In this document: in pieces, positions 1,712 to 45,653 of the stretch
Layout: each line of letters begins with the position of its first letter
Position numbering within the stretch: position 1 is the stretch's first letter
IMG/VR virus record: IMGVR_UViG_3300033186_000014
Coordinates: 1 to 48,314 of that record
Length of the DNA stretch: 48,314 nucleotides
Reading direction: 5' to 3' (one strand)
DNA from: a virus
Made by a program: the position numbers and the translations under genes
Notes under the pieces: model-generated
Told to the model about the DNA's origin: nothing
Seen by the model: the letters and a program-made list of their open reading frames with translations, nothing else
Databases searched by the model: none

Positions 1712-1739
1712 AAAAAGGGCCGCTCCGAAAAGCTGCCCC
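1712..1739 (-). terminator. Intrinsic terminator in the late-operon leader
   Basis: Minus strand reads GGGCAGCUU-UUCG-GAGCGGCCC (9-bp stem, one mismatch, UUCG loop) followed by UUUUUCUGUG. Confidence 0.6.
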
Positions 1740-1774
1740 TTAATCCTTGCTGTTTGGCCTGATTCCTGGATTGG

Positions 1775-1984
1775 TCAGCACCCTGTTTTAACGTCCTCCA
1801 CAGCACGGACGGTTGTATTAGTTTTAGGAGCACCGCTCCTTACATTTCGCGAAGCTGTATGCAACCGATAAGGCTTGGCCTCACCTTTTGCGACGTCGAT
1901 TGCTTCTTTAAGACCTGCTTTGATTTGTTTAAACGCGCTTTTAGACAAAGCTTCGCACTCCACCTCACTGAGAATGGGGGTCAC
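1775..1984 (-). pseudogene. Possible relic of a HigA/XRE-type antitoxin (N-terminal segment only)
   Basis: A GTG at 1984 overlaps (GTGA) the stop of a 28-aa ORF at 1981-2067. SKSAFKQIKAGLKEAIDVAKGEAKPYRLH resembles the N-terminal leader of HTH antitoxins, but no HTH follows. Confidence 0.2.
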
Positions 1985-2074
1985 CAATAACGCAATCTGT
2001 GCGCCTTCTGGCTGTAGCGTGCGCGTCGGTCGGCTTCCTGCTCCAACGGGTCCACGAACCGCCACATTTCAATT

Positions 2075-2096
2075 TCAAAGTCCTAAAGGACTTTGG
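2075..2096. promoter_or_regulatory. Perfect 20-bp palindrome overlapping the stop codon of the NusG-like gene
   Basis: CAAAGTCCT-aa-AGGACTTTG (9-bp arms). Confidence 0.4.
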
Positions 2097-2751
2097 CCAA
2101 ATTGTCAAGACTGACTTTCATCTCCTGATCTCGACCGAACAGCGTTGTAACAACCCTTGCGTCCCTCTTACCCAGCTCGCTAACCTTGACAAAAAAGCCT
2201 TCGAAAGACCCCTCAAGGATTTGCACCTCGTCTCCAACAGTGAAATCTGGTGTTGCTCTGTCTTCGTCTGGCGTAAATGTTTGATAATTGCTGTCGATCC
2301 AGCTAGCCATTTCATCGCCGCTTAGCGATTTGATCCGGCCTGACTGGCCCGGCGGGCTCAAAAACCCGCGAACAAATGACTGGCTACGGTAGATCGAAAG
2401 CCAATTCTGGAATCCAGCAGGCAGACCGACAAAGACCCACCCAGGCCATTCTGGGTATGCCTTGCGCTGCCGTGATTTTGTGTATCGGCTCAATTTCTGA
2501 TAGCGCGTCCCCAATGGCAAATATGCGCTAAACCCCAGTTCGACCATGGCTCGCTGTGCATTGTAATATTTGCGTCCGCCGGGGCTAAACCGCCCGATAG
2601 CCCACAACGTGCCATCGTCGGCCATTTCAGCTTGTGCAGCCTTGTTATAAATTCTCGCTCGCCGCTCTTGTGCCTCTTCTCTTCGGGCAAACTTGTTTTC
2701 GCGCTCCATCTGTCGCTGGATTCGGAGTTCTGCTCCATATCGCTCTTTCAT
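2083..2751 (-). CDS. NusG/RfaH-like transcription factor (NGN-like region plus KOW)
   Basis: C-terminal VGDEVQILEGSFEGFFVKVSELGKRDARVVTTLFGRDQEMKVSLDNL is a KOW motif. The central LWAIGRF..GFSAYLPL..WPGWVFVGL..VRGFL is NGN-like. It is the last early gene before the packaging genes. Confidence 0.7.
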   Translation of the reverse strand: MKERYGAELRIQRQMERENKFARREEAQERRARIYNKAAQAEMADDGTLWAIGRFSPGGRKYYNAQRAMVELGFSAYLPLGTRYQKLSRYTKSRQRKAYPEWPGWVFVGLPAGFQNWLSIYRSQSFVRGFLSPPGQSGRIKSLSGDEMASWIDSNYQTFTPDEDRATPDFTVGDEVQILEGSFEGFFVKVSELGKRDARVVTTLFGRDQEMKVSLDNLAKVL

Positions 2752-2767
2752 ACCCGCTCCTTATGGT

Positions 2768-2791
2768 GGCGCACCCCGCCGCAGGTGCGCC
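2768..2791 (-). promoter_or_regulatory. Perfect 8-bp GC-rich hairpin directly upstream of the NusG-like gene SD
   Basis: GGCGCACC-N8-GGTGCGCC, followed on the minus strand by accatAAGGAGcgggtATG. No U tract. Confidence 0.4.
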
Positions 2792-2798
2792 GTCTGGT

Positions 2799-3068
2799 TT
2801 ATGCTGCCTGCCCTGCAAGTGGGATTTCAATGGCATATGCTTCCTGCCAAACGTCGGCATGGTAGGCTTTGACTGTGCCGTAGTTGGCATCAAACACGTC
2901 AATTGGAGGCAGTCCCATGTCTTTCGACGCCTGCTTTAGCTCACGCCAATTGAATTGCTGGCCGTGATAGAGCATCGACATGCGCTTGACAGATGCATAT
3001 TGCTGCGACTGGTCAAGCTCACGTTCAAGTTTGTTTGCCTTGCGTGTTGCAGCACTGGCCGTTGCCAT
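2799..3068 (-). CDS. Hypothetical protein (or a C-terminal domain of AntA reached by a -1 shift)
   Basis: 89-aa ORF with protein-like sequence (..YASVKRMSMLYHGQQFNWRELKQASKDMGLPPIDVFDANYGTVKAYH..). Its frame is open upstream to about 3142 and overlaps the AntA ORF tail by 133 nt. Confidence 0.5.
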   Translation of the reverse strand: MATASAATRKANKLERELDQSQQYASVKRMSMLYHGQQFNWRELKQASKDMGLPPIDVFDANYGTVKAYHADVWQEAYAIEIPLAGQAA

Positions 3069-3442
3069 GGCCGTCGCTTCCCGGCGTGATCCGATTTCGG
3101 CTTTGGTGGCAATTGCTCTGCGGACTTGGCCCTGCGCTCGCAGTCAATAAAATATTGTCGCGCTTGCTTCCCTTTTACGTTACGCTCGACCATGGAAAGC
3201 TCTTTGGCCATGTCAAGCGTCAAAAAATACTCAATGCGCGTGGCGTTGTTGGCTTCCATTTTTTCGTGGAAGCGAACGAAGTCAGATCCTTCAACAAAAC
3301 CGTACTGATCAATTCGGGCCTTAACCCACGTTGAGAAGTCTTGACCGCTCTCCAAGAACGCATGAAGTTCACGCGCATTGACTGTCTGGATTTGATCGTC
3401 ACCAATATTATTCATTTCAATTGAAATAAGATCATTCATCAC
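2936..3442 (-). CDS. AntA/AntB-type antirepressor domain protein
   Basis: QTVNARELHAFLESGQDFSTWVKARIDQYGFVEGSDF...YFLTLDMAKELSMVERNVKGKQARQYFIDCERR matches the AntA domain pattern. The last ~55 aa look non-protein-like. Confidence 0.75.
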   Translation of the reverse strand: MMNDLISIEMNNIGDDQIQTVNARELHAFLESGQDFSTWVKARIDQYGFVEGSDFVRFHEKMEANNATRIEYFLTLDMAKELSMVERNVKGKQARQYFIDCERRAKSAEQLPPKPKSDHAGKRRPWQRPVLQHARQTNLNVSLTSRSNMHLSSACRCSITASNSIGVS

Positions 3443-3939
3443 GCCGCCTCCTGCTTCATGAAAACAAGAAAATGCGTCATGCCCTTTCGGCCCGAAACTT
3501 GCCCAAACAGCGGACGCATAGGTGTTAGCTCAAGAACTTCCCGAAGCTTTATTTGCGTCTCGTTCCACTTGAAAACTAATGTTCCGTGTGGTTCCAACAC
3601 TCGAAAGCACTCTGAGAAACCAGCTCTTATGTCGTCTCGCCAATCATCAGACAGTTTCCCATACTTCGCGACCAGCCAGCTTTTGCTGCCACCTCTCACC
3701 AAATGAGGCGGGTCAAAAGCCACCAATTTAAAGCTGGCGTCTGGAAATGGCAGATTCCTAAAGTCCATTTCCGTATCTGGCTTGATCTCAATTGAGCGAG
3801 TGCCATTTTTTTTCCCGTGAGATCTGTCTGTGACCGTGATTGTCTCTGTTCGGATGTCACCAAAGACAGCTTTGGGGCTTGACTTATCAAACCACCACAT
3901 TCGCGAGCCACAGCAAGGATCTAAAATTGGTTCATTCAT
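3439..3939 (-). CDS. Small orphan DNA methyltransferase (N6-A or N4-C class)
   Basis: Motif I-like ILDPCCGS and motif IV-like FDPPH. 166 aa with no adjacent endonuclease gene. Contains an A8 run (plus-strand T8 at 3806-3813). Confidence 0.65.
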   Translation of the reverse strand: MNEPILDPCCGSRMWWFDKSSPKAVFGDIRTETITVTDRSHGKKNGTRSIEIKPDTEMDFRNLPFPDASFKLVAFDPPHLVRGGSKSWLVAKYGKLSDDWRDDIRAGFSECFRVLEPHGTLVFKWNETQIKLREVLELTPMRPLFGQVSGRKGMTHFLVFMKQEAA

Positions 3940-4142
3940 GCCGCCACCTCTTGTCTCAGGTCGTCAATCAGATGCTTGACTTGTTCGCGGTTGTCTTCCA
4001 GCGCCCGCAGGAGCAGATCGCGCGGCAAGGAATAGTCAATGCCTTGCAAGCCGCTATTGTCGATCAGGCGGATAGCCTCAAAGAAGCCTTCCGTCTCGTT
4101 AATCTTGTCGATAAGGGGGAGTAGTTTTCTGGATACGCTCAT
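3936..4142 (-). CDS. Hypothetical protein (68 aa)
   Basis: ATG at 4142 is preceded by GGAG, and an ATGA overlap joins it to the methyltransferase start. It is the only protein-like part of the 363-aa track ORF 3936..5027. Confidence 0.55.
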   Translation of the reverse strand: MSVSRKLLPLIDKINETEGFFEAIRLIDNSGLQGIDYSLPRDLLLRALEDNREQVKHLIDDLRQEVAA

Positions 4143-4484
4143 GGCTTGAACTCCGTATGTGATCCAAACCCGGAGCCGAAACGCCAATTTCGGGTGACCG
4201 GGCAATATAGAATTGGCGTTACCATCACACGGAATGGCGCACTTTCGTGCTCCTATACGCCCGGCCATAGAAAATGGAAAACCACGCACATGAATGCATG
4301 GCGCGGTTGAGCGCCGTATGACAGAAGGGACGCCAATCCCCGCATGTCCTTTTTCGACATGCTGGCCGCAAGTGCGGTTACCGTCAAAGGTGCGCTGATT
4401 TGTAGATTTTGTCAATCCTTCGAAATTCGGACTCGACTCTTGCGTGCGAACGAGTAGCCTGAAACCAAACTTGAAGGGATCGAA

Positions 4485-4925
4485 ATGAAAGCCATTGTCA
4501 TTATCTTGGCCACCATGATCTTGGCTAGCTGCGCACAAAATTCTTTGAATGTTTACGAGCTTCCGCCAGAAAAAAACAAGCCATATGACAAAGTGGTTAT
4601 GCTGAACAAAAAACAACTGGCTTTCGTCAAAAAGGGCATTGCAGCAGGCTTGAAAGACCCTAACTCTGCGCTTTTCGGCGACATGGTCACCTTCCAAGAT
4701 CAAAATGGCGTTTTGCGCGTTTGCGGTTACGTCAATGGCCGCAACAGCTTTGGCGGCTACACGGGCATGCAGCCTTTCCTTGCGGTTTACGTCCCTTCTG
4801 AAAACTATGTCAATTTGGTCCGTGTCGGAAGCACACCGATTGAGCGAGCCAGCATTTCCAAGGTCTGCCTGAAAAACACAAAGGCAGGTGAACCACTGCC
4901 CACCTTTAAACCCGGCCCAAGTTAA
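4485..4925 (+). CDS. Lipoprotein, opposite-strand moron within the early-right operon
   Basis: Signal peptide MKAIVIILATMILASC with lipobox LASC. SD AAGGGA. Locally AT-richer, preceded by ~340 bp of non-coding DNA. Confidence 0.8.
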   Translation: MKAIVIILATMILASCAQNSLNVYELPPEKNKPYDKVVMLNKKQLAFVKKGIAAGLKDPNSALFGDMVTFQDQNGVLRVCGYVNGRNSFGGYTGMQPFLAVYVPSENYVNLVRVGSTPIERASISKVCLKNTKAGEPLPTFKPGPS

Positions 4926-5278: not shown

Positions 5279-5282
5279 CGCT

Positions 5283-5530: not shown

Positions 5531-5980
5531 TCAAAATGGAATGTCGTCGTTCATATCATCCGGCCCGCCTTGGGGCGCAGAGCCGTCATATGGTGGATTT
5601 TGCGGACGGCTGGTGCCTTGGCCTTCTGAACGGATATCGAGCATCACAAGTGAGCACGAGAAGCCTTGTAGGACGATTTCTGTCGAATAACGATCTTGCC
5701 CGGACTGGTCCTGCCATTTGCGGGTCTGAAGCTGACCTTCAACATAGACCTTGGAGCCTTTGCGCAGATAATTCTCTGCAACACGACACAGGCCCTCATT
5801 GAAAATAACAACACGGTGCCACTCCGTGCGCTCTTTCTTCTCGCCAGTGTTGCGATCCTTCCAGCTTTCGGAAGTGGCGACAGAGAGATTGGCAATCTTG
5901 CGCCCGTCTTGCGTGGTTCTGATATCCGGGTCATTGCCCAGTTTCCCAACCAAAATTACCTTGTTGACTGATCCGCTCAT
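5531..5980 (-). CDS. ssb: Single-stranded DNA-binding protein
   Basis: OB-fold N-terminus [45 protein letters not shown], a Gly/Pro-rich linker and the acidic tail DDIPF. Confidence 0.95.
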
Positions 5981-7062: not shown

Positions 7063-7794
7063 TCAGTTCTCGGCCAGTGCGGCCTTAATGTGATCCGCAG
7101 CCTCTTTCAAAACCGCCTTTGCTTTCATGTCTTCTTCAACGTCTGGATGATCTAGATCGGCCTTAGCGCGAATGTCCGCATTGACCTTCTCAACCCATGC
7201 CGCGCGTTCTTGTGCGGTCAGTTCTGGACCCTTAGATTCTGGCGGCTTGATGTTTTTCAGACGATCAATCAGGATTGTGCGTTGGCTCAAAAGCGCGTCG
7301 GCTTCGGCCTTCATATCGTGCCAGCTTGGAAACCATTTCCACGTCTTTTCAAGCAGCAAAAACCGCACGATATCGGACGGGTAACCAGCAAGCCGCGTCG
7401 CGTATGATTGCAGGCTCACGCGGTGCCCAAGTTCGCTATCGCCACGCCTCGCGCAAATCGAATGAAGCTCAACAAGCCAGTTCTCAATCCGGTCAAACTC
7501 GGCAGGGGCAAGCATCAGTTCAATTTCACTTGCCAACTTCTCAGCATTCTCAACAGCGCCACCAAGCCGGAGCCCGTTACAAATCCAACGCGATCCACCT
7601 TGCTTCGGAAACTCACTCCGGCCCGTCAGTTCAAACCGGATCCCGTAGCTCGCCGCAATTTCCTTGATCCGGTTTCCAACCTTCCGAGGGGTTTGAGTGA
7701 CAAGCCATTCTGCAACCTGCTCGGATTTCCGCTGGTCCACCATCTGACAATTTTCAGCCACCACAACGGGCAAAGCGTCTACAAGCTGTCTCAT
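7063..7794 (-). CDS. Hypothetical replication-module protein
   Basis: ATGA overlap with the DUF1376 gene. No recognisable NTPase motif. Confidence 0.6.
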   Translation of the reverse strand: MRQLVDALPVVVAENCQMVDQRKSEQVAEWLVTQTPRKVGNRIKEIAASYGIRFELTGRSEFPKQGGSRWICNGLRLGGAVENAEKLASEIELMLAPAEFDRIENWLVELHSICARRGDSELGHRVSLQSYATRLAGYPSDIVRFLLLEKTWKWFPSWHDMKAEADALLSQRTILIDRLKNIKPPESKGPELTAQERAAWVEKVNADIRAKADLDHPDVEEDMKAKAVLKEAADHIKAALAEN

Positions 7795-8648
7795 TCCGCT
7801 GACTTTCCAAGTTGATCTGCCCACGGGTCTGGGACCAAGGTTAAATTCGGAGCAGTACGCCCCGCTCTGCTGGCCCTGTTGGCGACCGCGGCGTCAGCGA
7901 ATGACGAGGGCCCACGGTTCTGGCTTGGCGATGACGCCCCTGACCTCTCCAGCCATTCAGGCTCAACGGATTTCCAGCCGCGCAAAATCATTTCATTCGC
8001 CGCAAGGACTGGATCAGGACATTTTTGGAGACGGTTCACCAGCCCCGTTGCTGCTCGTGGCGTATTCGGTGCCTTGAGTTTCGTTCGGTGCTTGGCAATG
8101 TCGTTTGCAAGCTCGTCACCGAGGATTGGCACAAGCGCTTCAACAAAAATTTGGCGATCAGATTTAGGCTTCAAAACAACAGAAGCCGAAGGCGTCTTTT
8201 TGGATATATCGTTAGATATATCTTTTTCTATATTTGGCTTTGGTTTTGGTTGGCATCCTTCGGGCATATGCCCCAGCGATGCGTCCGCATTGTCACTGCC
8301 ATTGTTTTTATTGTCTTTTTTATCCCATCGCGACTGTGCTGCAGCTTTCGCTTTCTCACTTTTTCCTGTCACGTTTTTGATCTCTTTTTCGGCCCGTTCG
8401 TTGGTGATGCGCCCTTCCCGCTCAACAATTTTCCCTTCGGAAATGAGGTATTCGAGCGCCTTTACAAACTTCGCCTTGCTGCCACACCCGCAGAGCCTTG
8501 CAAGCCGGTTGTCGTCCCGCTCGATAGGCCCGGCCATCTCGTAAATGCGAGCAACCAAAGTGATATAGACACCGGTTTCCTCGGCACTAAGCCCACGTGT
8601 TCCAGCAAGCCAGTCAGACGGGTAAAACGGGACGTGGACGATGCTCAT
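7791..8648 (-). CDS. DUF1376 (YdaU-like) replication-associated protein
   Basis: VPFYPSDWLAGTRGLSAEETGVYITLVARIYEMAGPIERDDNRLARLCGC is the characteristic DUF1376 N-terminus. SD GGGGG. Confidence 0.7.
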   Translation of the reverse strand: MSIVHVPFYPSDWLAGTRGLSAEETGVYITLVARIYEMAGPIERDDNRLARLCGCGSKAKFVKALEYLISEGKIVEREGRITNERAEKEIKNVTGKSEKAKAAAQSRWDKKDNKNNGSDNADASLGHMPEGCQPKPKPNIEKDISNDISKKTPSASVVLKPKSDRQIFVEALVPILGDELANDIAKHRTKLKAPNTPRAATGLVNRLQKCPDPVLAANEMILRGWKSVEPEWLERSGASSPSQNRGPSSFADAAVANRASRAGRTAPNLTLVPDPWADQLGKSAE

Positions 8649-8649: not shown

Positions 8650-9135
8650 TCACCCCCTCACGTCCGCCAGCGAGCGGCGCAGGGCTTCCAGCGCGGTCAT
8701 CTGGCTGTCGATCTGCTTCTTAAGGGTTTGTGCTTCTTTCGGGGTGACCTTGCCGTCTTCCAGCGCATCAGCAACCGTTGCAGTAAAAGCACCGCAAGAG
8801 CCAAGCGCATGGATGCAGGCCGGGACCGGGGCTTCCTCTTTCGTGCATTCAATTTTCTGCACGCTGTAGCCTAGAACCTTCAAAAGCGAGGCTGCAATAA
8901 CGGGCTCTTGGCCCAAATCTTCAACCAAATGTCGATCAATCGCGACACAGGCCAAAGCAGGCGGGAAAACAGCATCGTTCGGATTGGCCCAGCGATACAA
9001 AAGGCTCGGCTCACGCCCCAGCTCAAACGCTGCGCTTTTGGGCCCGCCACTCCTTTGAAATGCCTCTTTCAAAGCGATGCAAAAATCTTCAACCAGACCG
9101 CTTGCAAGGCTAAAATTTGGATCTTTTTCGGCCAT
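8650..9135 (-). CDS. Regulatory protein, possibly CII (CP76)-like
   Basis: Start taken at ATG 9135 (MAEKDPNF..). It sits between cro and the replication genes. LLYRWANPND...ASLLKVLGY...DGKVTPKEAQTLKKQI loosely recalls phage CII/CP76 proteins. Confidence 0.4.
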   Translation of the reverse strand: MAEKDPNFSLASGLVEDFCIALKEAFQRSGGPKSAAFELGREPSLLYRWANPNDAVFPPALACVAIDRHLVEDLGQEPVIAASLLKVLGYSVQKIECTKEEAPVPACIHALGSCGAFTATVADALEDGKVTPKEAQTLKKQIDSQMTALEALRRSLADVRG

Positions 9136-9217
9136 TATAAAAAGGTCTCTCAATTGTAAATGACTTTTGTACGCATCTGTCCGATACTGAGACCGAAGCC
9201 AAGAGCGTCTAAGCGTT

Positions 9218-9420
9218 GGGGCCGGGCTGCTGGTTTGCTTAAACCCGGCCCCAGTTGGCGGACTTCCCCGGTTCATTTGTCTGCCGGGGTTCATAAGAGC
9301 GGGGACCGATTTGCTGGTTTTATAGGGGTCGGCCCCCGGCTCTAAAGGGTGCGGGACGGCCATTGGAGGGAAACCGCCCCGCTATGGCTGGCCCTGGGAG
9401 GGAGAGGAGCCGCACCAGCC
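9218..9420 (-). promoter_or_regulatory. GC-rich multi-hairpin untranslated region between the cro block and the CII-like gene (nutR/tR1-position analogue)
   Basis: Five stems: 9218-9252 (9 bp), 9266-9289 (6 bp), 9301-9337, 9351-9382 (9 bp) and 9386-9420 (6 bp). The two imperfect stems are G-U wobbles only on the minus-strand RNA. Confidence 0.45.
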
Positions 9421-10039: not shown

Positions 10040-10363
10040 ATGCAAAATGATCGCCCCAGCTCACCAGAAAACATTGCCACACGGCTAGAATGGCTGCGGG
10101 ATTATCACGGCCTGACATGGAAGGAATTTGCTGCCAGCATCAACGCATCGTCAGCAAAGGTCAGTAATTGGATAAATGGCACAGGCCGCCTATCTATTGA
10201 CGGCGCACTTTCAATTCGTGAGATCTATAGAGTTTCGTTGGATTTTTTGTATCTCGGCGATGCGTCATCATTGCCACTTGAAATGCGGAAATCGTGGATA
10301 TTACGAAATGGTGGAAGCATTTCCGAGACGGAAGAAGTTGTCTCGACCGTTAATAGTGACTGA
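10040..10363 (+). CDS. XRE-family repressor (cI analogue) lacking an S24 peptidase domain
   Basis: HTH region LTWKEFAASINASSAKVSNWINGTGRLSIDGALSIREIY. Only 107 aa. Confidence 0.75.
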   Translation: MQNDRPSSPENIATRLEWLRDYHGLTWKEFAASINASSAKVSNWINGTGRLSIDGALSIREIYRVSLDFLYLGDASSLPLEMRKSWILRNGGSISETEEVVSTVNSD

Positions 10364-10870
10364 CACAACAACCGCAATGCCTGGTCGCTGAAATTCTCTG
10401 TCCCGAACCACAATTGTTCTAGGGACAACCCTTTCCGCTCACACACATCAAGCAACATGTGTAGCCGATCATCCGCATTCATACTTATTACCTACTACTT
10501 GCAATATTTTAAACGCCCCACAGCCTGATTTGACGTTGCAGCAATAGCTTAGAGCCATCTATGATATGTTGCTAAACCACTTTTCGGTTGCTATGCGAAG
10601 AGTTAGCGGCAGATAACAAGCCGCTCCCATTCGCAAGAACTTCCCCCCGCGCAGACTGCAAAGACGCGTTTTTTAATACCAGCACAACAGCTCCCCGGGG
10701 GAGAGCGGGCGTACTAGATACGATAAGGCAAGTCTCTTTTGCCGAAAGTGAGGTGGTAGGAACACCTCACCCCGCGAATTATTACTTGCTACCATCCAGT
10801 ATGCAACCCTTAAACGATAACTTTTGCAAATTAGATCAATTCTATATTACAATTTTTTTTGAATTTTGCA

Positions 10871-10899
10871 TTGACGTTACAAATTATTTGTATTATTGT
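10871..10899 (+). promoter_or_regulatory. Early-left (PL-like) promoter with overlapping operator O2
   Basis: TTGACG, 17-bp spacer, TATTGT. The spacer contains TACAAA-tta-TTTGTA (10878-10892). A T8 UP-like tract lies at 10853-10860. Confidence 0.55.
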
Positions 10900-10943
10900 T
10901 TACCCATCACCGCAGAGAGCGGCAGCAACGATGGGAGACAACA

Positions 10944-11387
10944 ATGGGAACACGGGCATCATTCTTTATTGGCAATCCAGAAGACATTGAAAATCGCCAG
11001 TGGCTCGGCTGTGTGGCGTGGGATGGATATCCTGATGGTGACATTGGGCGTTTTCTTGAAGCTGCAACAACCGAAGACGATTTTGCCGAAGCCGTGAGCA
11101 AGATTGCAGCGTCGCGCGATGATTATTGCGATCCGAAAAAGTACGACTTCCCCTTCCCTTGGAGTGACGACCTTTTTCTGACCGACTTTACCTATGCTTT
11201 TTTTGATGAAGAAGTTTGGGCCACGAGCTTTCACACGGGCTGGGCATTGCTGAAAGAACATCTTAACGCAGATGATGAATGGCACGAGATGTACAGCAAT
11301 CGCGAAGAACTCCCAAGCAATGTACAAGCCCCGCAGAAAGCCGGGAAACCGGCAGGGCCAGACAGCATCATCATTATATCAGCCTAG
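10944..11387 (+). CDS. Hypothetical acidic early protein (147 aa)
   Basis: ATG 10944 follows the GGGAGA SD. First gene after the PL-like promoter. Confidence 0.65.
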   Translation: MGTRASFFIGNPEDIENRQWLGCVAWDGYPDGDIGRFLEAATTEDDFAEAVSKIAASRDDYCDPKKYDFPFPWSDDLFLTDFTYAFFDEEVWATSFHTGWALLKEHLNADDEWHEMYSNREELPSNVQAPQKAGKPAGPDSIIIISA

Positions 11388-30348: not shown

Positions 30349-30373
30349 GGTTCTGGTCGGTTTTCTGGGTAAC

Positions 30374-32869: not shown

Positions 32870-32870
32870 G

Positions 32871-33455: not shown

Positions 33456-34159
33456 GAGTTCGCCAGATCTGTCCAGTAGTCAACGGCCTCTTTTAGGCTG
33501 ATGGAGGGGAAACAAAGCTTCCCTGGCTTTTCTTCGGCGGTCATTTCAGTGTCCGTCGCCAAATGCATCAGACACATCGGATCATCCGTTTCCAAATCTG
33601 CCCCGGCAGGGATCGTTTGCCGGATTGCGGGGAATACCCGCATTTGCCAGATGTTCCCGCTTTTCGAGATGATGGACCCCGTTTTGTAGAGTGCATACTG
33701 ATATGAGAATTTAATCCCTGTCAGATCATCGCCTGCATGCTGAGCCTCGATCGATACAATCGTTGATCCAAGATTGGCTTGAGCTGATGTTCTCAGAATG
33801 ATCGAGCGGTTCCGATATCCCGTCCCATCTGAGAAGGAAGCCCCATCAGAATGGTTAGTAATGGTTGGCTCGCTCTCAATATCGTCCACATACGGCGCAG
33901 AGAAGCGTGAGACAGCAGGAACAGCAATCAACCCGCTCCTACCGCCTAGCTCCGTCGCAATCGCCTGCCAGACCCTCCAGTGAGCCGCTGAGACAATTGG
34001 AATATTCTTCAGATCAGCCTTCCAGAACCCGACGTCGGTTTTCGTGGTTCGCTCACTGCCCTCAAGGGATAGCCCCCCGGTCCGGCTCATAGCTGCTTCG
34101 GTGAACTGTGCCTCTCCGATCCGCAAAGTCTTAGACGGCCATACAAGAAAATCAGCCAA
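33452..34159 (-). CDS. Distal/minor tail protein (lambda M position); start uncertain (TTG 34159 or ATG 34090)
   Basis: The track ORF extends to 34336 inside the tape-measure gene. TTG 34159 overlaps the tape-measure stop. Confidence 0.5.
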   Translation of the reverse strand: MADFLVWPSKTLRIGEAQFTEAAMSRTGGLSLEGSERTTKTDVGFWKADLKNIPIVSAAHWRVWQAIATELGGRSGLIAVPAVSRFSAPYVDDIESEPTITNHSDGASFSDGTGYRNRSIILRTSAQANLGSTIVSIEAQHAGDDLTGIKFSYQYALYKTGSIISKSGNIWQMRVFPAIRQTIPAGADLETDDPMCLMHLATDTEMTAEEKPGKLCFPSISLKEAVDYWTDLANS

Positions 34160-36158: not shown

Positions 36159-36172
36159 CACTTACCTCATAG

Positions 36173-36201
36173 AAAAAGGCCCCTCACCGAAATGAAGAGC
36201 C
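36173..36201 (-). terminator. Intrinsic terminator between the antirepressor and tape measure genes
   Basis: Minus strand reads GGCUCUUCA-uuucgg-UGAGGGGCC (7/9 pairs) followed by UUUUUCUAU, directly before the tape-measure SD. Confidence 0.5.
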
Positions 36202-36229: not shown

Positions 36230-36913
36230 TTAAGCCTGTGCCATCATTTCAGGCAACCGCCTGCGGAGCCATTCAAGCCCCCTTGGAGTAACGAAAGTCT
36301 GAGGGCGCATCTTGCCCGGTTCGTTTCGATCCTCAACGGGGAGCACCACGAAATAGCCCTGGTTGCGATAATATTGCGTCGGGGTTGCTGGCGTGCCGTA
36401 AAGCACCTTGCGACCGCGCAGTGCCTTGATTGCTTTGTTCGGACCAAAGCCCACAGTTTTCATTGCCCGGTTCAAGTTGTAGTTTTCTGACCGCGCCCCT
36501 ATGAAATGCTCATAGCTTTCAACCTTCGGCGCGACCGCCTCCAATTGTGCCACTGCTTTCTGCTCGCCCTTCTTTGCTGTGATCCACGCCTCTGCGGCTG
36601 CAATTGGATCTTCGAAGTTTGGCAGAGCAACGGCTGCTTTGCTTTCCAATTCTTGCCAACGGTCGATAATTCGGGCAGTGAACAATGGGTCAAGGTTGGC
36701 AACCAGATTGAGGCTTTCGGTTTTGTTGAGGCGGTAAATCAGCCGTGTATTATTGTTATTGTAACGCTCCTCAATCTCAGGAGCGCAAATAATGCCCTTT
36801 TCTTTCAATCGCCTAGCAACTACCATCACATTGTCATGCCGCTTGTTGCAAAGTTCGGCAATCTCGACCGTGGTCATGGTCATTTCATTTGAAATGTTTG
36901 TCAGATCGTTCAT
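36230..36913 (-). CDS. Antirepressor: Rha N-terminal domain plus KilAC C-terminal domain
   Basis: TTVEIAELCNKRHDNVMVVARRL (pRha-like). NFEDPIAAAEAW...APKVESYEHFIG...NQGYFVV (KilAC-like). Confidence 0.75.
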   Translation of the reverse strand: MNDLTNISNEMTMTTVEIAELCNKRHDNVMVVARRLKEKGIICAPEIEERYNNNNTRLIYRLNKTESLNLVANLDPLFTARIIDRWQELESKAAVALPNFEDPIAAAEAWITAKKGEQKAVAQLEAVAPKVESYEHFIGARSENYNLNRAMKTVGFGPNKAIKALRGRKVLYGTPATPTQYYRNQGYFVVLPVEDRNEPGKMRPQTFVTPRGLEWLRRRLPEMMAQA

Positions 36914-37185
36914 GCCACCGCCCCGCTTCTTTCGGCTGCGCGACGCTGATCAAGGAACTCAATAAGCTTTTCACGGTTTTTGGTGACGAGATTGGCCAGT
37001 AGAACGCGGCAGTTCGCATATCTGCGCAGCATTTCTTCATCGTGATATTCGGGAGCCTCCAACTTCTCGTCAAGAAGTATGATTGTTTCCCATACACCGT
37101 CTATTTCTTCGACAATGTCAGAAACATCATTGCATATTTTCAATGCGGCATTGCGGTTAGGATTAATCTGCGCTATATTCGTCAT
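36910..37185 (-). CDS. Hypothetical protein between the Arc-like and antirepressor genes
   Basis: ATGA overlaps on both sides. Confidence 0.55.
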   Translation of the reverse strand: MTNIAQINPNRNAALKICNDVSDIVEEIDGVWETIILLDEKLEAPEYHDEEMLRRYANCRVLLANLVTKNREKLIEFLDQRRAAERSGAVA

Positions 37186-37421
37186 AGAATTTTCCTTTTC
37201 CTAGCTGGTTGGGAAATTTGTGTGAAAGCTCCGGTGTTGCTGCACTGGGGCTTTCTTCGTTTCGGGATCAGTGCGGCCTCCTGTTCAGAAAGTTTCTTCT
37301 GACTTCTTAGCGCCCTCACTATCTCTTGGTTCATAGACGAAAAATTCTTGTCTTTCTGCTCTTGAAGCCATTGCTTGATATCAACTGGCATTCGAAGAGT
37401 AATGCGTGCTTCCTTTTGCAT
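37182..37421 (-). CDS. Arc-like ribbon-helix-helix repressor (the track ORF extends to 37508)
   Basis: MQKEARITLRMPVDIKQWLQEQKDKNFSSMNQEIVRALR fits the Arc/Mnt RHH pattern. First gene of the arc-orf-ant unit. Confidence 0.55.
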   Translation of the reverse strand: MQKEARITLRMPVDIKQWLQEQKDKNFSSMNQEIVRALRSQKKLSEQEAALIPKRRKPQCSNTGAFTQISQPARKRKIL

Positions 37422-37437
37422 TCGTGCTAACCTTTCT

Positions 37438-37519
37438 ATGACACACCGTGCGTCATATCCTATGTGTGGCATAGGTGTGGCATTGTTGTCAATAAAAAAG
37501 TGTGTCATTGGTGCGTCAT
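37438..37519. promoter_or_regulatory. Divergent control region with RHH-type operator repeats
   Basis: GTGTGGCAT x2 at 11-bp spacing (37464, 37475). Inverted ATGACACAC/GTGTGTCAT (37438, 37500). GTGCGTCAT x2 (37448, 37511). Confidence 0.5.
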
Positions 37520-37826
37520 GGCTAGAGAAGATTTACATTTTAGGCTTCGGATACCCGAAGAATTGAAAAAGCGCGTTGAAACTGCGGCAGCAGAGAACCA
37601 TCGTTCAATGACAGCCGAGATAATCGCCCGCCTTGAGGAAAGCTTCCAAAGCGAACAGGGCGTTGTTGTTGACGCAGAAGAGATTGCCAGGCTTGTTCAA
37701 AAGGTGATGGACGAAACCTTTGCGGGCAAAGTCGGCCCCGTTTTAACAATCCGCGATGCAAGAGACCGTCCCGACCCGATAACACGCGAGCCAGCAGCAA
37801 AGACCCATAAGTTCTCCAAAGACTAA
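37518..37826 (+). CDS. Mnt/Arc-like ribbon-helix-helix repressor, divergent
   Basis: MAREDLHFRLRIPEELKKRVETAAAENHRSMTAEIIARLEESF is a clear Arc-domain signature. Confidence 0.7.
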   Translation: MAREDLHFRLRIPEELKKRVETAAAENHRSMTAEIIARLEESFQSEQGVVVDAEEIARLVQKVMDETFAGKVGPVLTIRDARDRPDPITREPAAKTHKFSKD

Positions 37827-37898
37827 GCTGCACTTTCTTCTCTATCGACTTTTGATAGAAAATATGGTTATGCTTTTGTTGTAAAGCGGGAGGCCCAG

Positions 37899-38117
37899 AT
37901 GACTAACAGATACGATAATCGTGAAATTTTCTCTGTTGACGCAGGTTTGATACAACTCGCTCAAACTGATGATGGCCCAATAGCTTGGACAAGCTTGCAC
38001 ATTGATATCACATCGATCGATGGGACGCAGATGGGCCCTGGGATTGCGAAGGAGCCGAAGGAGAATTTGAAGCAGGCATTTTGTAAAACTCCCTTGTTTC
38101 GTGTGCGGGAAGAGTAG
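37899..38117 (+). CDS. Hypothetical protein (72 aa)
   Basis: SD GGGAGG. Confidence 0.55.
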   Translation: MTNRYDNREIFSVDAGLIQLAQTDDGPIAWTSLHIDITSIDGTQMGPGIAKEPKENLKQAFCKTPLFRVREE

Positions 38118-38146
38118 GTTCTTTCATCTCCTAAATCGGAGGTTTC

Positions 38147-38698
38147 ATGTTTAAGGCTCTTGTTTCTGTTGCTGCGATCTGCGTGATTGCTGCAACCGGT
38201 TGGTTCTTCTGGGGCGAATATCAAAACGCTAAGAAAATGAACGCTGAATTAGCTTCCTCCGAGAGTGAGGTAGACAACAGCACGCTATCTCTTATCAGCA
38301 AGCCTTCCTGCACACTTGAGCAGATCAGGGCTAAGACGACGATTACTTTTGGCCGTCTTTACGATGCCGAGAACAAGCAAAACAGCATCTTCTTCTATGT
38401 AAAAAACAACCTTCCCTGGACGCTTTCTGGAGCACAGGTTGAGTACGAAGTTTACTTTGAAGGGAAGCCTGAACCGAGCTTTAAGCAAGCTGAAATTGTC
38501 GCCTTCCCTAATGGCATCGCACCTGATACGCAACGCTGGTTCTACACCCTACCATTCACCTTCCCTTTTCTTGGTGAAGAGCCAAAAGAAGTCTCTATGC
38601 GAGTGGTCGACGTAGCTGACCAGTACAAGCGCTTCGTCCTCCACCATCCAACAGGAGGGGATTGGATGAAGGAACTCAGCACCAATAAGTGCAACTAA
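38147..38698 (+). CDS. N-terminally membrane-anchored protein, candidate superinfection-exclusion or conversion factor
   Basis: SD GGAGG. TM LVSVAAICVIAATGWFFW followed by a ~150-aa beta-rich domain. Confidence 0.65.
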   Translation: MFKALVSVAAICVIAATGWFFWGEYQNAKKMNAELASSESEVDNSTLSLISKPSCTLEQIRAKTTITFGRLYDAENKQNSIFFYVKNNLPWTLSGAQVEYEVYFEGKPEPSFKQAEIVAFPNGIAPDTQRWFYTLPFTFPFLGEEPKEVSMRVVDVADQYKRFVLHHPTGGDWMKELSTNKCN

Positions 38699-39941: not shown

Positions 39942-40370
39942 TTAAGCCTCTGTTTCGAAAGCTTGCCAGTTGATAGAAACCGGAAATCTCAGCCGGTCTT
40001 TATCGGTGAACAGACCTGCAGGATCGGGCCGCCCGTCGATCTGAACGAACATGCCATCACCCCAAAGCTTGAGGTCCTTTTGAAAGTGGTTGATGATCTG
40101 GCCAGCGATGTCCTGACCGGTGGTGATACTTTGGTTCTTTTGCGTTAGAACCGTGACTTGGAAGATCCCTTGAATGTGCGCGGGTTCTTCGTCGATTGCA
40201 TAATCAATGGAGCCATTCTGAATGTGATCGACCTGCACATAAGTTTGTGCTTTGCGCTGCCCCTTTTTGGGGTAGTCTGAGCCCGGAAAAGCGATGTCAT
40301 GCTCAAGCCCAAGGCTTTCAAGATGTGCGCTCAGCACTGTATAGGCCTTGCCTTCAAGTGAATTTGCCAT
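39942..40370 (-). CDS. Tail terminator / tail completion protein (DUF4128- or DUF3168-like)
   Basis: Synteny and size (142 aa). Confidence 0.55.
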   Translation of the reverse strand: MANSLEGKAYTVLSAHLESLGLEHDIAFPGSDYPKKGQRKAQTYVQVDHIQNGSIDYAIDEEPAHIQGIFQVTVLTQKNQSITTGQDIAGQIINHFQKDLKLWGDGMFVQIDGRPDPAGLFTDKDRLRFPVSINWQAFETEA

Positions 40371-40383
40371 CTATGGTGTTTCC

Positions 40384-40593
40384 ATGACTGAAAAGCTCAC
40401 AGACGAACAAGTCCATGAACGGGTCTACTTGGCGATGCTTTCGCTCGGTAAAGAGGAAGGCGAAACGGTTCGGGGCAACACCACCTTGGAAGCCGCCCGC
40501 CGTGCGCTCATGCTTCTGCAGCTAGGCTTGGTCAATGCGATGGAGAAGAACGAAGACAAGAACATCGCAATCAAAGATCGAAGCGAGCCTTGA
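40384..40593 (+). CDS. Possible opposite-strand small ORF (69 aa) in an otherwise unexplained 200-bp gap
   Basis: MTEKLTDEQVHERVYLAMLSLGKEEGETVRGNTTLEAARRALMLLQLGLVNAMEK.. is helical and protein-like. The minus-strand frames here are poor. Weak SD (GGTG). Confidence 0.35.
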   Translation: MTEKLTDEQVHERVYLAMLSLGKEEGETVRGNTTLEAARRALMLLQLGLVNAMEKNEDKNIAIKDRSEP

Positions 40594-41017
40594 CCTTCTT
40601 TGCATTCCGATCAACGATTTGTGGCCATTTCTGAGCCGCTGTGCGCACGAATGCGTCTGGCGGCTGTCCATTAGCCCCATACTCCCTATGCGCCGCATAT
40701 GACGCTGTGAAGCCGAAGAAAAGCGTATCTTCCAACGCGGCCCCGGCAATGATCGCTTCAATCTGCCCCAGATCCAAATTGTAGGACTGTCCATCGATCG
40801 GAACCGAGGCTTGGTTGATGGTTGGCATGGCAGATGTTGAGGCCAACAAGGAATTTCTCAGAAAGCCGGTATCAACCCGCATCCGGCCACCTTTGGCGCG
40901 AGGTCGAACCATTTCCTCAACAACATCCTGAGCGCTTTCATTCCTGACCGCTTCAACTGCCTCAAGCACATTGCCGACGAAGGCTTCAACCTGTGCGGAG
41001 AATGAGAGCTTAGCCAC
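40571..41017 (-). CDS. HK97 gp10-like neck / tail-component protein
   Basis: VDTGFLRNSL...GFTASYAAHREYG is the HK97 gp10 family signature. Confidence 0.65.
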   Translation of the reverse strand: MAKLSFSAQVEAFVGNVLEAVEAVRNESAQDVVEEMVRPRAKGGRMRVDTGFLRNSLLASTSAMPTINQASVPIDGQSYNLDLGQIEAIIAGAALEDTLFFGFTASYAAHREYGANGQPPDAFVRTAAQKWPQIVDRNAKKVKARFDL

Positions 41018-43202: not shown

Positions 43203-43482
43203 TGTTTCCCATGGCCTTCAGGGCTTCAACAAGCCCGTCTTTGGTGTCTGGGCTATCGTCGCCGAGGAGCTTTTTTGCTGCAGCTTGAGCAGTTTTGAAA
43301 TGCACGCCCGTATCATCGAACAACGCAAGCACATCAGAAGGAGATGGTTCTGAGCCTTCGTTCTCCAGTTCACCGGCTTTCAAAACGATCCACCCGCAAG
43401 CCTTCATGTTCTCCACTTCGTTTGGATGTACAGCAGATTCCTTCCGGTCTGCCGTACGTATCATCGCAATTGTTTCAACCAT
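43186..43482 (-). CDS. Hypothetical head-module protein
   Basis: 98-aa ORF directly after the capsid gene hairpin. Confidence 0.55.
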   Translation of the reverse strand: MVETIAMIRTADRKESAVHPNEVENMKACGWIVLKAGELENEGSEPSPSDVLALFDDTGVHFKTAQAAAKKLLGDDSPDTKDGLVEALKAMGNNENGR

Positions 43483-43505
43483 TGTTTTTCAACCAATCTG
43501 AAAGT

Positions 43506-43527
43506 CCGAGGGCGCGAACGCCCTCGG
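43506..43527 (-). promoter_or_regulatory. Perfect 9-bp GC hairpin with a UUCG loop just downstream of the major capsid gene
   Basis: Minus strand reads CCGAGGGCG-UUCG-CGCCCUCGG. No strong U tract follows (ACUUUCAG). Confidence 0.6.
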
Positions 43528-43547
43528 TAGCCCGTGGGGAAGGAGGT

Positions 43548-44693
43548 TTAGCCGAGCAGAATGCCCATATTTTCAGGCTTGATCTCTTTGACGCCCCAAG
43601 CTAGACCAATCTCAATTTTGACGCGGCGGTACTGGCGATACATAGCAAACTGATAAGTCAATCCAGACACTGGGTCGGTCAGAGTCATGACATCATCAGC
43701 CTCGTCACCACCTTCAGGCATTGCAGGCTGGCGAGCAGCCAGAAGCATTGCGTTCCTGTGGTAGAACATGTTCGCTGTGTAGCTGTTGCCGACCGTGATG
43801 GACGCATTATCAGCAGCGGCGCTAAGAAGACCGGGCTTGTTGATGGAAAGATCCCCACCCGACAACGCAGTGCCAACAACATACTTGTTTGCGTCACCAT
43901 CAAGGGTCACAACATCACCAGTGAGAACTGTGCCAGTTCCGGTGTCGACTGCGATCAAGGTGTCCCCAGCCGCAGAAGACGCATCGTTCAGCAGATAGCC
44001 TGAACCCGTGCCTTTCGTGTGAGATTTAATACCTGCAGAATATCCCATGGTGAAGTTATGAAGCTGACGCATTTGACGATTTCGAAGCATTGCTCCGGCA
44101 TCGCCAGCTTCATTGACACGGAACAGTTCTGGGTGTTTTCCCTCAAGGTTTGCACGTGCCGCAGAACCAAGGATCATTACGCGATCAGACGCGGGGCAAC
44201 CATTTTCGTCCAGAATGCGGTTTGCCTGAGCAAAATCAGTGTGATCATTCGCTGTGCCGAATGGAGTAGTGCCAGCCGTACCATAAGCACGGGACGCTCC
44301 ATAATACAGTGCTGCAAGGTCGGCTTCTACGGCATTGGCGATGGTGCGGAAGCCCTGTTCCATTTTTTGAGCCATCAGAGTGTCGTAAATGCCGTAGTTA
44401 TTCGTCGACTTCTGCTCCTCGCCCGTCCAGCGGATCGGATATGCTTTGGACTTCGTGATAGTCACGTCAACATACTCATCGGTGGTATCACCGGAATCTG
44501 CAGGGTCATTGCCAGGAGTGATGTCCTCAAGAGAACTTGTACCTGCGATTGGCGAACGGACAGTCTGCCCGACAGCAGCGTTTTCAGCAGTTGCATCAGT
44601 TGCGACATTTGGAATAAAGCCGATGAGTTCGCGGTTGACAGTCTCAAGAGCTGTATAAATGGTCGGGATCAGACCCGTAAGCGTATTAGCCAT
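43548..44693 (-). CDS. Major capsid protein (P22 coat-like family)
   Basis: MANTLTGLIPTIYTALETVNRELIGFIPNV N-terminus. 381 aa. It follows the scaffold gene. Confidence 0.8.
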   Translation of the reverse strand: MANTLTGLIPTIYTALETVNRELIGFIPNVATDATAENAAVGQTVRSPIAGTSSLEDITPGNDPADSGDTTDEYVDVTITKSKAYPIRWTGEEQKSTNNYGIYDTLMAQKMEQGFRTIANAVEADLAALYYGASRAYGTAGTTPFGTANDHTDFAQANRILDENGCPASDRVMILGSAARANLEGKHPELFRVNEAGDAGAMLRNRQMRQLHNFTMGYSAGIKSHTKGTGSGYLLNDASSAAGDTLIAVDTGTGTVLTGDVVTLDGDANKYVVGTALSGGDLSINKPGLLSAAADNASITVGNSYTANMFYHRNAMLLAARQPAMPEGGDEADDVMTLTDPVSGLTYQFAMYRQYRRVKIEIGLAWGVKEIKPENMGILLG

Positions 44694-44795
44694 CGTGATT
44701 TCCTCTTAGATAGCGATGTTTTGGGGATGAATCGGGCCATCCAGCCCGGAACACCGCCACCCATCCGAGAAGCGGTTTATCAAATAGATTTGGCT

Positions 44796-45563
44796 TTAGG
44801 TGGCATCCACCACCTTAAAACCGTCCTTAATTTTGCTCATCTGGTCGGCAGGATTGAGCCCGTCGAATTCAGAGCGTGAAAGCGTCTTGTTACCTGCTTT
44901 CCCATTGTTCGGCTTTCCACCGCCGCCGTGGTTGTCGTTCCCCTTCAGGATGTGATCCTTATGAGGATAAGCGTCGACGAAGGATTCGATGATTTCATCA
45001 AAGCCAGCCAAATCAGCAGGGTTAGAGGCAGAGCGGATCGGCTGACCGGCAGGATCAAGCCCTACAATTCGACCTTCTTCAATCTTGAGCTTGTCCGCGT
45101 AGATATTCTTGATCAGGTCCGCCCCGGCGGGGGTTAGCTTCTCGGTGACAAATTTGGATTGGCTGAACTGGTTGCCGATCTTTTCGGCTGACAGTGAGCC
45201 TTGAAGGGTTTCGATGGTTTTATCTTTCGACGCCAAATCGTCTTTAAGAGGCTTCACAGCAGCCGCGATTGCTGCGTCCATATCACCGGCGTCTACCAGT
45301 TTCTTTGCATCAATCTGCCCAATCTTTTCTAACGCCTCTTTGGCTTCTTCTGCATCCAAGCCGTCAAAAGATTTTAACGCATCCTCTGTAGCTGCAGCTT
45401 TTCGCTTTGTGCTGGCAAGATCATTCTCAAGGCGCGTCAAAGAGCCACGCATAGCTTCTGCATCATAAACATGTTCTTTGCCATCATCGCTGATATAGAC
45501 AGGTTTTCCATCCTGCACTAACGCGTAGGTTTTTCCTTCAATCTCGACTGTTTTAAGTGGCAT
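44796..45563 (-). CDS. Scaffolding protein
   Basis: Highly charged helical 255-aa protein between the portal and capsid genes. Confidence 0.65.
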   Translation of the reverse strand: MPLKTVEIEGKTYALVQDGKPVYISDDGKEHVYDAEAMRGSLTRLENDLASTKRKAAATEDALKSFDGLDAEEAKEALEKIGQIDAKKLVDAGDMDAAIAAAVKPLKDDLASKDKTIETLQGSLSAEKIGNQFSQSKFVTEKLTPAGADLIKNIYADKLKIEEGRIVGLDPAGQPIRSASNPADLAGFDEIIESFVDAYPHKDHILKGNDNHGGGGKPNNGKAGNKTLSRSEFDGLNPADQMSKIKDGFKVVDAT

Positions 45564-45628
45564 TTCTTACCTCTGGCCATCCGGCCTTTGAGTTGACCCA
45601 TCCGGATCGGCTTTGCCCATTAAGGCAT

Positions 45629-45653
45629 GAAAAAGGCCCGCTTTAAGCGAGCC
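45629..45653 (-). terminator. Intrinsic terminator between the portal and scaffold genes
   Basis: Minus strand reads GGCUCGC-uuaaa-GCGGGCC (one G-U pair) followed by UUUUUCAUG. Confidence 0.6.

Follow-up and report, generated by a model that had tools for sequence, protein, structure and literature searches.

Intrinsic terminators are known within the late operons of lambdoid phages. Thus, intra-operon terminators have been reported in the genome of phage L, where their role was left open and where they may stop transcription that proceeds without gp23/gp24 modification (PMC8022706). In Bacillus, LoaP, a NusG paralog requiring a leader element, enables read-through of the leader terminator and of internal terminators of an adjacent long operon (PMC12691694). 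The window studied here, i.e., the whole 48,314-nt stretch of IMG/VR virus record IMGVR_UViG_3300033186_000014, is the complete genome of a lambdoid temperate phage of 48.2 kb, closed into a circle. Its first 79 bases equal its last 79, forming a 79-bp terminal direct repeat (1-79 identical to 48236-48314), so that the circle measures 48,235 bp; the 536-codon TerL frame is unbroken only across the circular junction. The late transcription unit extends on the minus strand over ~25 kb, from ~2080 through the junction down to ~25.5 kb, and contains five predicted terminators (T1 to T5) and one hairpin (H), with a gene for a NusG paralog at its entrance (Table 1). Judging from the sequence, this unit is probably gated and insulated by intrinsic terminators and expressed by processive antitermination.

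A previous inspection made without database searches, called here the sequence-only reading, had listed five terminators and the hairpin H on the minus strand, and all six are present. T1-T5 consist, as it had claimed, of GC stems followed by U5-U7 tracts. The stems are 6-13 bp long, their core energies range from -9.5 to -13.5 kcal/mol, and the U tract stands at offset 0. Context energies and z-scores were computed by RNAfold on 32-46 nt contexts, core-stem energies being computed separately; contexts of T2-T5 range from -10.9 to -17.5 kcal/mol with z-scores of -2.9 to -3.9, and the z-score of T1 is weak (-1.1) because its flanks are G-rich. With an approximate implementation of the d'Aubenton-Carafa score, T1-T5 all obtain positive values (6 to 30) and H a negative one (-20). 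T2-T5 stand in intergenic gaps, 15-33 nt past a stop codon, and T1 in the leader, 345 nt beyond the NusG-like gene's stop codon and 170 nt ahead of the first late open reading frame (ORF). T2 begins 15 nt past the portal stop codon and ends 72 nt ahead of the scaffold gene. By structure and position, T1-T5 are predicted to be intrinsic (Rho-independent) terminators. A bidirectional function was discarded on inspection, the reverse strands being devoid of U tracts. UUCG loops are found in three stems (T1, T3, and H) and not in two as first counted, and none of the three has the canonical C(UUCG)G closing pair.

A strict scan of both strands of the whole genome, retaining single hairpins of at most 32 nt with -9 kcal/mol or stronger and directly followed by at least 5 T, yielded six matches, all on the minus strand of the late region, and none in either early operon. 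They correspond to T1-T5 and to a sixth site at 25514-25541 (T6), so that the former count of at least five terminators was right for the five listed and had missed this last one. It is extremely improbable that such hairpin-plus-U sites arose by chance in intergenic DNA and serve no function. Their raw number is about twice, and thus only modestly above, the mean of 2.8 strict matches in 40 dinucleotide shuffles, but five of the six lie within ~1,444 nt of late intergenic gaps representing 1.5% of both strands (binomial P about 4e-9), and the z-scores of T2-T5 given above also stand against it. A chance origin was excluded because the placement is one-stranded and concentrated in the late gaps. 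The statement that terminators occupy almost every intergenic gap was overstated, since five of the 11 late gaps of at least 27 nt contain a terminator, one contains H, and one contains a weak hairpin followed by UUUUCAGUC (40395-40420, minus strand, inside the plus-strand ORF 40348-40593).

The argument for read-through comes from the distance between T3-T5 and the genes behind them. The U tract of T3 stops about 12-17 nt ahead of the tape-measure start codon, T4 stops about 21 nt ahead of the probable tailspike ATG, and the U7 tract of T5 enters the ribosome-binding site (GGAGA) of the endolysin gene. Thus, the ends of T3-T5 lie 12-21 nt from start codons, with U tracts entering the Shine-Dalgarno sequences, which means that no promoter fits between terminator and gene. 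A sigma-70 promoter scan predicted none after or near any terminator site. As there is no promoter space behind T3-T5, the tape-measure, tailspike, and endolysin genes need a polymerase that passes the terminator. On this geometry, read-through of T3-T5 is obligatory, as the sequence-only reading had held, and the step from there to antitermination is a sound one. The gene behind T4 had been taken for the tail fibre gene; it is tailspike-like, and the J-like fibre gene precedes T4.

It is very unlikely that the region consists of several independent units restarted by promoters invisible to a sigma-70 scan, for example activator-dependent late promoters. There is promoter room behind T1 (170 nt) and T2 (72 nt), and the arc-ant module embedded ahead of T3 has, by analogy with P22, certainly a promoter of its own. 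Given its plus-strand inserts, the region is also more complex than a single operon. Indeed, strict co-directionality does not hold, as codon-usage scoring and a PHROG match place plus-strand genes at 37464-38698 and 40348-40593. Minus-strand ORFs at 37540-38533 were dropped, the plus-strand genes being preferred on codon score. Two of the plus-strand ORFs (40348-40593 and 37899-38698) have good codon scores, lack family matches, and are antisense to the late operon, so late transcription must cross them. Nevertheless, promoters for the genes behind T3-T5 would have to sit upstream of these terminators and would still need read-through, and the sigma-70 scan found promoter-like sites next to none of the sites.

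The protein proposed to promote this read-through is a 222-aa NusG paralog encoded by the last gene of the early-right operon, the position named here the Q slot. It matches phrog_6386, annotated as transcription antiterminator (E 8.5e-12), scores 20.1 bits against Pfam NusG, below the cut-off of 22.2, and is aligned by phmmer with Thermotoga NusG from the PDB across both domains (E 9e-7). An AlphaFold2 (AF2) model built with 38 homologs (predicted local distance difference test score of 90.9) displays a 42-residue N-terminal helix, an NGN domain (48-130), a linker helix, and a five-stranded KOW barrel (175-220). All top 30 Foldseek hits of the model are NusG, RfaH, or Spt5 structures (E 1.8e-10 to 1e-6), and the NusG/RfaH fold (NGN+KOW) of the product is thus confirmed at the level of the predicted model. 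Scores against the NCBIfam models for NusG, UpxY, RfaH, and LoaP reach 13-33 bits for cut-offs of 100-150, and the homologs P0002, P0003, P0004, and P0007 are likewise far below these cut-offs. Being sub-threshold in all named NusG subfamilies, these proteins form a separate, rare subfamily. An exhaustive HMMER search collected 357 representatives at E<=1e-3, a single one of them above 50% identity. A tblastn search of 50,697 GenBank phages gave no match, and searches of IMG/VR with the single protein, P0004, or three alignments gave either no confirmed relative or alignments too poorly conserved. No paper characterising the phage NusG paralog was found in a literature search that was incomplete. 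GafZ and BrrG, two antiterminators of gene transfer agents, were both rejected as relatives, GafZ being reported without similarity to known antiterminators and BrrG resembling Q21.

The genomic context would suit a late regulator. The gene order is lambdoid, with repressor, cII-like, O-like, SSB, NusG paralog, leader, TerS, TerL, portal, and the other late genes. Where a context is available, the homologous genes stand behind replication genes and ahead of a long non-coding stretch and packaging genes. In the TARA contig L011, whose capsid is 62% identical, the order is primase-helicase, NusG-like gene, ~1.1 kb with small ORFs on both strands, TerS, TerL, and portal. The NusG paralog is thus adjacent to the late operon and to a conserved leader, whose element would recruit it.

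This leader element is conserved at the DNA level in L009, L010, L014, and L137, and partly in L011, L013, L135, and L138, though the NusG-like proteins are 32-58% identical. It starts with a -35-like TTGACA (2107-2102) within the last codons of the NusG-like gene (Leu-Asp-Lys/Asn). CTTGAC was found at the same codons in eight of nine homologous genes (window, L009, L010, L011, L013, L014, L135, and L138), ending 17 nt ahead of the stop codon, with the full TTGACA in seven and TTGACC in the eighth (L138), for protein identities of 25-58%. The motif is too uniform for codon choice alone, which argues for selection at the DNA level. The -10-like TGAAAT repeats are found at 2077-2066 in the window, and relatives have TGAAAT, TAAAAT, or GTAAT motifs. 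Then, 6-16 nt (mostly 6-10) downstream of the -10-like motifs, comes a GGAYC(C/A)G-type block, which reads GTGGAYCCG in closer relatives, followed by AGCCGA..ACGCGCA and, in several sequences, by TATTGGT, a variable hairpin, and AGTGCGAAGC, whose distances agree (~+96 and ~+128). In leader block B, a hairpin then AGUGCGAAGC is suggestive in 3-4 sequences only. The leader may therefore combine a promoter with an element for loading or pausing comparable to qut or ops.

A palindrome, AAAGTCCTTTAGGACTTT, covers the stop codon of the NusG-like gene. At 2068-2085 (minus strand), an 18-bp perfect palindrome, AAAGTCCT-TT-AGGACTTT, spans this codon; it is kept in L009 and L010 and is partly coding (K-V-L-stop). 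It could be an operator or a factor-binding site between the -35-like and -10-like elements. Since indels in the leader break the frame, it is non-coding; the leader ORF 1775-2065, with out-of-frame indels relative to L010, was rejected as a conserved gene. The ops element is GGCGGTAGnnTG, which GGCGGTTCGTG in the window leader resembles. This ops-like sequence was rejected as a conserved ops site since L009 and L010 differ and there is no JUMPstart match, the leader having no Rfam match at all. At the DNA level, the leader pattern had no match in IMG/VR, and a tighter one had none in GTDB genomes. A slightly looser one gave at least 120 GC-rich chance matches in metagenomes, none of those listed adjoining a NusG-like gene. 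Terminators also occur at the operon entrance of relatives, with two canonical ones at +130 and +251 past the NusG-like homolog of L011, one at +386 in L014, and terminators directly upstream of packaging genes in L002 and L140.

Antitermination could also be ascribed to a put-like leader RNA or to an unrecognised Q/N-like protein, the NusG paralog being an anti-Rho or transcription-translation coupling factor, which is decidedly unlikely. The capsid is 48% identical to that of HK639, a phage that uses RNA-based antitermination. The leader is strongly conserved in sequence, and many early ORFs of the window received no annotation in PHROG/Pfam scans. In L140, whose capsid is 64% (local tblastn) or 66% (locus search) identical, the slot holds an unrelated 213-aa protein and a terminator. 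On the other hand, the leader always travels with the NusG-like gene (32-58% protein identity), which argues for a joint function. RNAalifold gave no consensus fold for its most conserved block (block A, 5 sequences, consensus energy of only -3.6 kcal/mol), and none of the window genes tested against Pfam and PHROGs matched a Q or N family. The L140 protein (3918-4640), of unknown family, sits in the same pre-terminase slot and is followed downstream by a strong terminator (-17.9 kcal/mol), then TerS. It was rejected as NusG-like (hhalign probability 0.2%, no Pfam match). The regulator slot appears to be exchangeable, and this protein is possibly another, uncharacterised type of antiterminator.

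The processive antitermination that we favour by means of the NusG paralog would proceed as follows. T1 would be the equivalent of lambda tR', blocking polymerases already engaged in the early-right operon or started at a promoter that overlaps the regulator gene at its 3' end. This block would last until the NusG paralog has accumulated and has been loaded, at the conserved leader element, onto RNA polymerase, which in this modified form would then pass T1, T2-T5, and H down to ~25.5 kb, where T6 may end the operon. In the prophage, T2-T5 would act as insulators of the tape-measure, tailspike, and lysis genes against unmodified polymerases responsible for ant-promoter or spurious transcripts, T5 also shielding the lysis genes, and they would be read through during lytic growth. 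The antitermination put forward by the sequence-only reading is partly supported, with obligatory read-through, the NusG fold, the Q slot, and the conserved leader in its favour; that the NusG paralog is the antiterminator acting there, that it loads at this site, and that T2-T5 insulate is what we infer. On a wider scale, the odds seem even that the rare phage NusG paralogs form an uncharacterised class of lambdoid late antiterminators replacing Q, loaded at a ~140-nt leader element starting in their own last codons, making RNA polymerase resistant to at least five strong intrinsic terminators over 25 kb, and more LoaP-like than RfaH-like.

Several points weigh against this mechanism. As the protein is sub-threshold in every named subfamily, its activity is not transferable by homology. 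Among proteobacterial NusG paralogs, RfaH is the best studied; it acts mainly against Rho and pausing, with only weak activity on strong intrinsic terminators. TAGGAC is a poor candidate for a -10 hexamer, and the evaluable leaders of L013, L135, and L137 have no strict terminator. The comparison covers about nine relatives with leader sequence, most of them on contigs under 3.5 kb. Finally, T6 may be either the operon-end terminator or an intragenic signal. Indeed, it is located 47 nt past the last ORF of the lysis cassette (25588-25920), yet inside a hydrophobic 162-codon ORF, possibly encoding a membrane protein, whose start overlaps the previous stop codon (TGATG).

The origin of T2-T5 bears on a further explanation, graded attenuation, in which leaky terminators would set a head > tail > fibre > lysis gradient with no dedicated antiterminator. 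T2-T5 are absent at equivalent positions in relatives, which have terminators elsewhere. Thus, L001, L008, L011, L139, and L140 (portals 46-53%, capsids 46-66% identical) have no terminator at the T2 position. T2-T5 would therefore be signals marking module ends in this lineage rather than a conserved means of tuning expression. For T3, a better explanation is that it terminates the P22 immI-like arc-ant module embedded there. This module shows divergent ribbon-helix-helix repressors, an antirepressor, T3, and then the tape-measure gene, as expected for immI, with a lower GC content (47-48%). T4 and T5 are more readily understood as delimiting an exchangeable tailspike cassette, a segment with 54.3% GC vs about 50% in its neighbours.

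Attenuation is unlikely. The stems are of moderate stability (-9.5 to -13.5 kcal/mol), the copy needs for tape measure, fibre, and endolysin are far below those for head proteins, and partial termination is named among the possible roles of intra-operon terminators in the phage L study (PMC8022706). Such ratio-setting, proposed in the sequence-only reading, nevertheless fits poorly because T2, behind the low-copy terminase and portal genes and ahead of the most abundant scaffold and capsid, would lower the latter relative to the former, against stoichiometry. Five U5-U7 terminators in series would leave very little transcript for the essential lysis genes unless each is weak. Their positions are not kept in relatives with the same head genes, and attenuation gives no reason why a NusG paralog and a conserved leader are found precisely where the operon begins.

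The strongest plus-strand hairpin of the late region (37224-37255) has a 14-bp stem, with a 10-bp core of -15.9 kcal/mol, and precedes UUCGUUUC. It is antisense to the Arc-like gene, within which it lies, and could be the terminator of a candidate sar-like antisense RNA. In T2 (45630-45655, minus strand), a 23-nt frame, CCGGCUCGC-loop-GCGGGCCUUUUUCA, is identical in terminators of two other phage contigs. Sites of the T2 type are found in L004 (17906-17932), L007 (8959-8985), L014 (1131-1158), and L141-L147, at other late-operon positions in the phages. GTDB genomes contain seven sites, mostly in Alphaproteobacteria, one of which (L146) is 1.6 kb downstream of a homolog of the window gene 40571-41017. 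The frame may be a host-typical or mobile terminator design, with a hint of an alphaproteobacterial host.

H differs in kind from the terminators it had been listed with and would not belong to the antitermination system. The perfect 9-bp UUCG hairpin behind the capsid gene is real, but it lacks the U tract of an intrinsic terminator. Its position is conserved. In six of six sequences (the window and five contigs), a perfect 9-13 bp G-C-rich hairpin is located within ~40 nt past the capsid stop codon. The six hairpins are unrelated in sequence, with a UUCG loop in two, and none is followed by a U run of four or more, L140 having a weak UUCUC tail. With structure and position kept and no U tract, H points to an RNA 3'-end stabiliser or a processing barrier. 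It more likely protects the 3' end of a processed capsid mRNA than terminates transcription.

The remaining gene order is summarised here and in Table 1. The NusG-like gene, of 222 codons, closes the early-right minus-strand operon, which also holds an ORF in the cro position and a methyltransferase gene. It is followed by a 536-nt leader, orf153, TerS, TerL, and, across the junction, the portal gene. Past the portal come the scaffold, major capsid, connector and tail genes, tape measure, and tail-tip genes, then the J-like fibre, tailspike, endolysin, and spanin-like ORFs. A plus-strand operon includes recombination genes, with the integrase last. Megablast of the late half against GenBank phages gave no match. 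Right behind the endolysin gene, two overlapping out-of-frame ORFs (25922-26348, minus strand) resemble an overlapped spanin pair; the start of ORF 26073-26348 overlaps the endolysin stop codon, and ORF 25922-26317 matches phrog_19660. Upstream of the endolysin gene, no holin was recognised. The phage has three antirepressor-like genes, namely Ant (36230-36913), AntA (2936-3442), and the Ant/Rha-like ORF 15088-15936 on the plus strand. The 5' end of the latter carries an Rfam isrK match (64.6 bits) beside a C4 antisense RNA (56 bits) at 15136-15303 (plus strand), and the region looks like a P1/P7-type c4-controlled antirepressor module.

Table 1. Terminator-like sites, leader motifs, and genes of the window, with post-capsid hairpins of related contigs (energies in kcal/mol).
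Feature	Position	Strand	Structure or match	Remark
T1	1712-1738 (stem 1717-1738)	-	GGGC-A-GCUU[UUCG]GAGC-G-GCCC then UUUUUC	Bulged stem, core -10.9
T2	45630-45653 (stem 45635-45653)	-	8 bp then UUUUUC	Context -13.7, z -3.05
T3	36173-36201 (stem 36178-36201)	-	10-13 bp, UUCG loop, then UUUUUC	Context -17.5, z -3.9
T4	30325-30348 (stem 30329-30348)	-	8 bp then UUUUUU	Behind J-like fibre; context -13.2, z -3.2
T5	27288-27310 (stem 27295-27310)	-	6 G-C-rich bp then UUUUUUU	Behind tailspike; context -10.9, z -2.9
T6	25509-25541 (stem 25514-25541)	-	-16.1, U5	Strongest terminator-like site in genome
H	43506-43527	-	Perfect 9-bp G-C-rich UUCG hairpin, no U tract	Behind major capsid; context -19.2, z -3.6
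Post-capsid hairpin, L001	~13660-13690
Post-capsid hairpin, L008	~10870-10900
Post-capsid hairpin, L011	14841-14865
Post-capsid hairpin, L139	~4275-4302
Post-capsid hairpin, L140	~11160-11182
NusG paralog	2083-2751	-	222 aa	Last gene of early-right operon (Q slot)
Conserved leader element	1950-2107	-		DNA-level conservation
Leader block	2055-2047	-	GTGGACCCG
Leader block	2034-2030	-	GCCGA
Leader block	2025-2020	-	CGCGCA
Leader block	1989-1983	-	TATTGGT
Leader block	1958-1953	-	GTGCGA
Head/packaging genes	43548-48314	-		Behind T1, around T2
TerL	47135-48235 plus about 1-420	-		Spans circular junction
Portal	45669-47135	-		Head/packaging
Scaffold	44796-45563	-		Head
Major capsid	43548-44693	-		Head
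P22 immI-like module	36230-37826	both	PHROG/Pfam matches, codon scores	Inside late operon
Mnt/Arc-like repressor	37464-37826	+	Arc-like match, E 1e-17
Arc-like gene	37182-37508	-	E 3e-6
orf91	36910-37185	-
Ant antirepressor	36230-36913	-	KilAC plus Rha domains
Essential genes behind T3-T5	26345-36161	-	PHROG matches	Including distal tail and tip genes
Tape measure	34152-36161	-	PHROG match	Behind T3
J-like central fibre	30374-32476	-	PHROG match	Before T4
Tailspike-like	27344-30319	-	phrog_14558	Behind T4; probable ATG 30304
Endolysin	26345-27274	-	PHROG match	Behind T5; ATG 27274
Repressor	10040-10363	+
cII-like gene	8650-9363	-		Early operon, divergent from repressor
O-like replication gene	7791-8648	-		Early operon
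SSB	5531-5980	-		Early operon
AntA	2936-3442	-		Early operon

Terminator-punctuated late operons are already known in lambdoid phages, where overriding them by a late antiterminator belongs to the lambda/P22 paradigm, and a phage NusG paralog in place of Q would be new, adding a type to the lambdoid late regulators. The combination is noteworthy, with a NusG-fold protein at the operon entrance, a leader conserved beyond the protein level, a leader terminator, and four canonical terminators directly on ribosome-binding regions of essential genes. It would offer a compact, genetically tractable system for understanding how a NusG paralog defeats intrinsic rather than Rho-dependent terminators. 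It would also allow the role of intra-operon terminators as insulators to be tested in a clean natural setting, T3 separating a lysogeny-type ant cassette from the tape-measure gene.

As in lambdoid late antitermination (lambda Q/PR'/tR', P22 gp23), the regulator gene of the window is the last one of the early-right operon, the putative late promoter or loading region overlaps or follows its 3' end, and a late operon exceeding 20 kb is gated by a terminator in its leader. P22 immI, with a terminator upstream of the tailspike gene 9, likewise associates a mnt/arc/ant-type module with a terminator before an essential tail gene, and phage L shares the further predicted intra-operon terminators. 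In contrast, the window regulator has a NusG (NGN+KOW) fold and is unrelated to any Q family, and the lysis genes stand at the far end of the operon and not at its start. For a late promoter with a factor-binding element (a Q-binding element in lambda) and a sigma-dependent pause, the candidates in the window are the conserved TTGACA, the -10-like motifs, and the GGAYC(C/A)G-type block. HK022 and HK639 are lambdoid phages with related head genes in which read-through is tied to a conserved leader element, a role that the window leader would share. Their put element is a two-stem-loop RNA acting without a phage protein, whereas the window leader has no conserved fold in five sequences and co-occurs with the NusG-like gene.

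Both remaining systems rely on NusG paralogs. RfaH is, like the window protein, a specialised paralog associated with horizontally acquired long operons and recruited at a short conserved element (ops/JUMPstart) of the transcribed leader, as would be the case here. However, the window protein scores 13.6 bits on the RfaH model for a cut-off of 144.5, AF2 gives it a beta-barrel KOW instead of an autoinhibitory helical hairpin, the ops-like sequence of its leader is not kept in relatives, and RfaH opposes mainly Rho and not strong intrinsic terminators. For LoaP of Bacillus velezensis, acting on the dfn and the mln operon, the window protein scores 13 bits, the cut-off being 125. Upstream of T1, no UNCG hairpin for recruitment was recognised, the leader blocks being conserved in sequence rather than in structure, and the setting is a phage, probably of a Gram-negative host, instead of a polyketide gene cluster. 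Still, both loci encode a NusG paralog beside its target operon (putative here), with a leader recruitment element (also putative in the window) followed by an intrinsic terminator and with several more intrinsic terminators within a very long operon, which in the case of LoaP are read through (PMC12691694).

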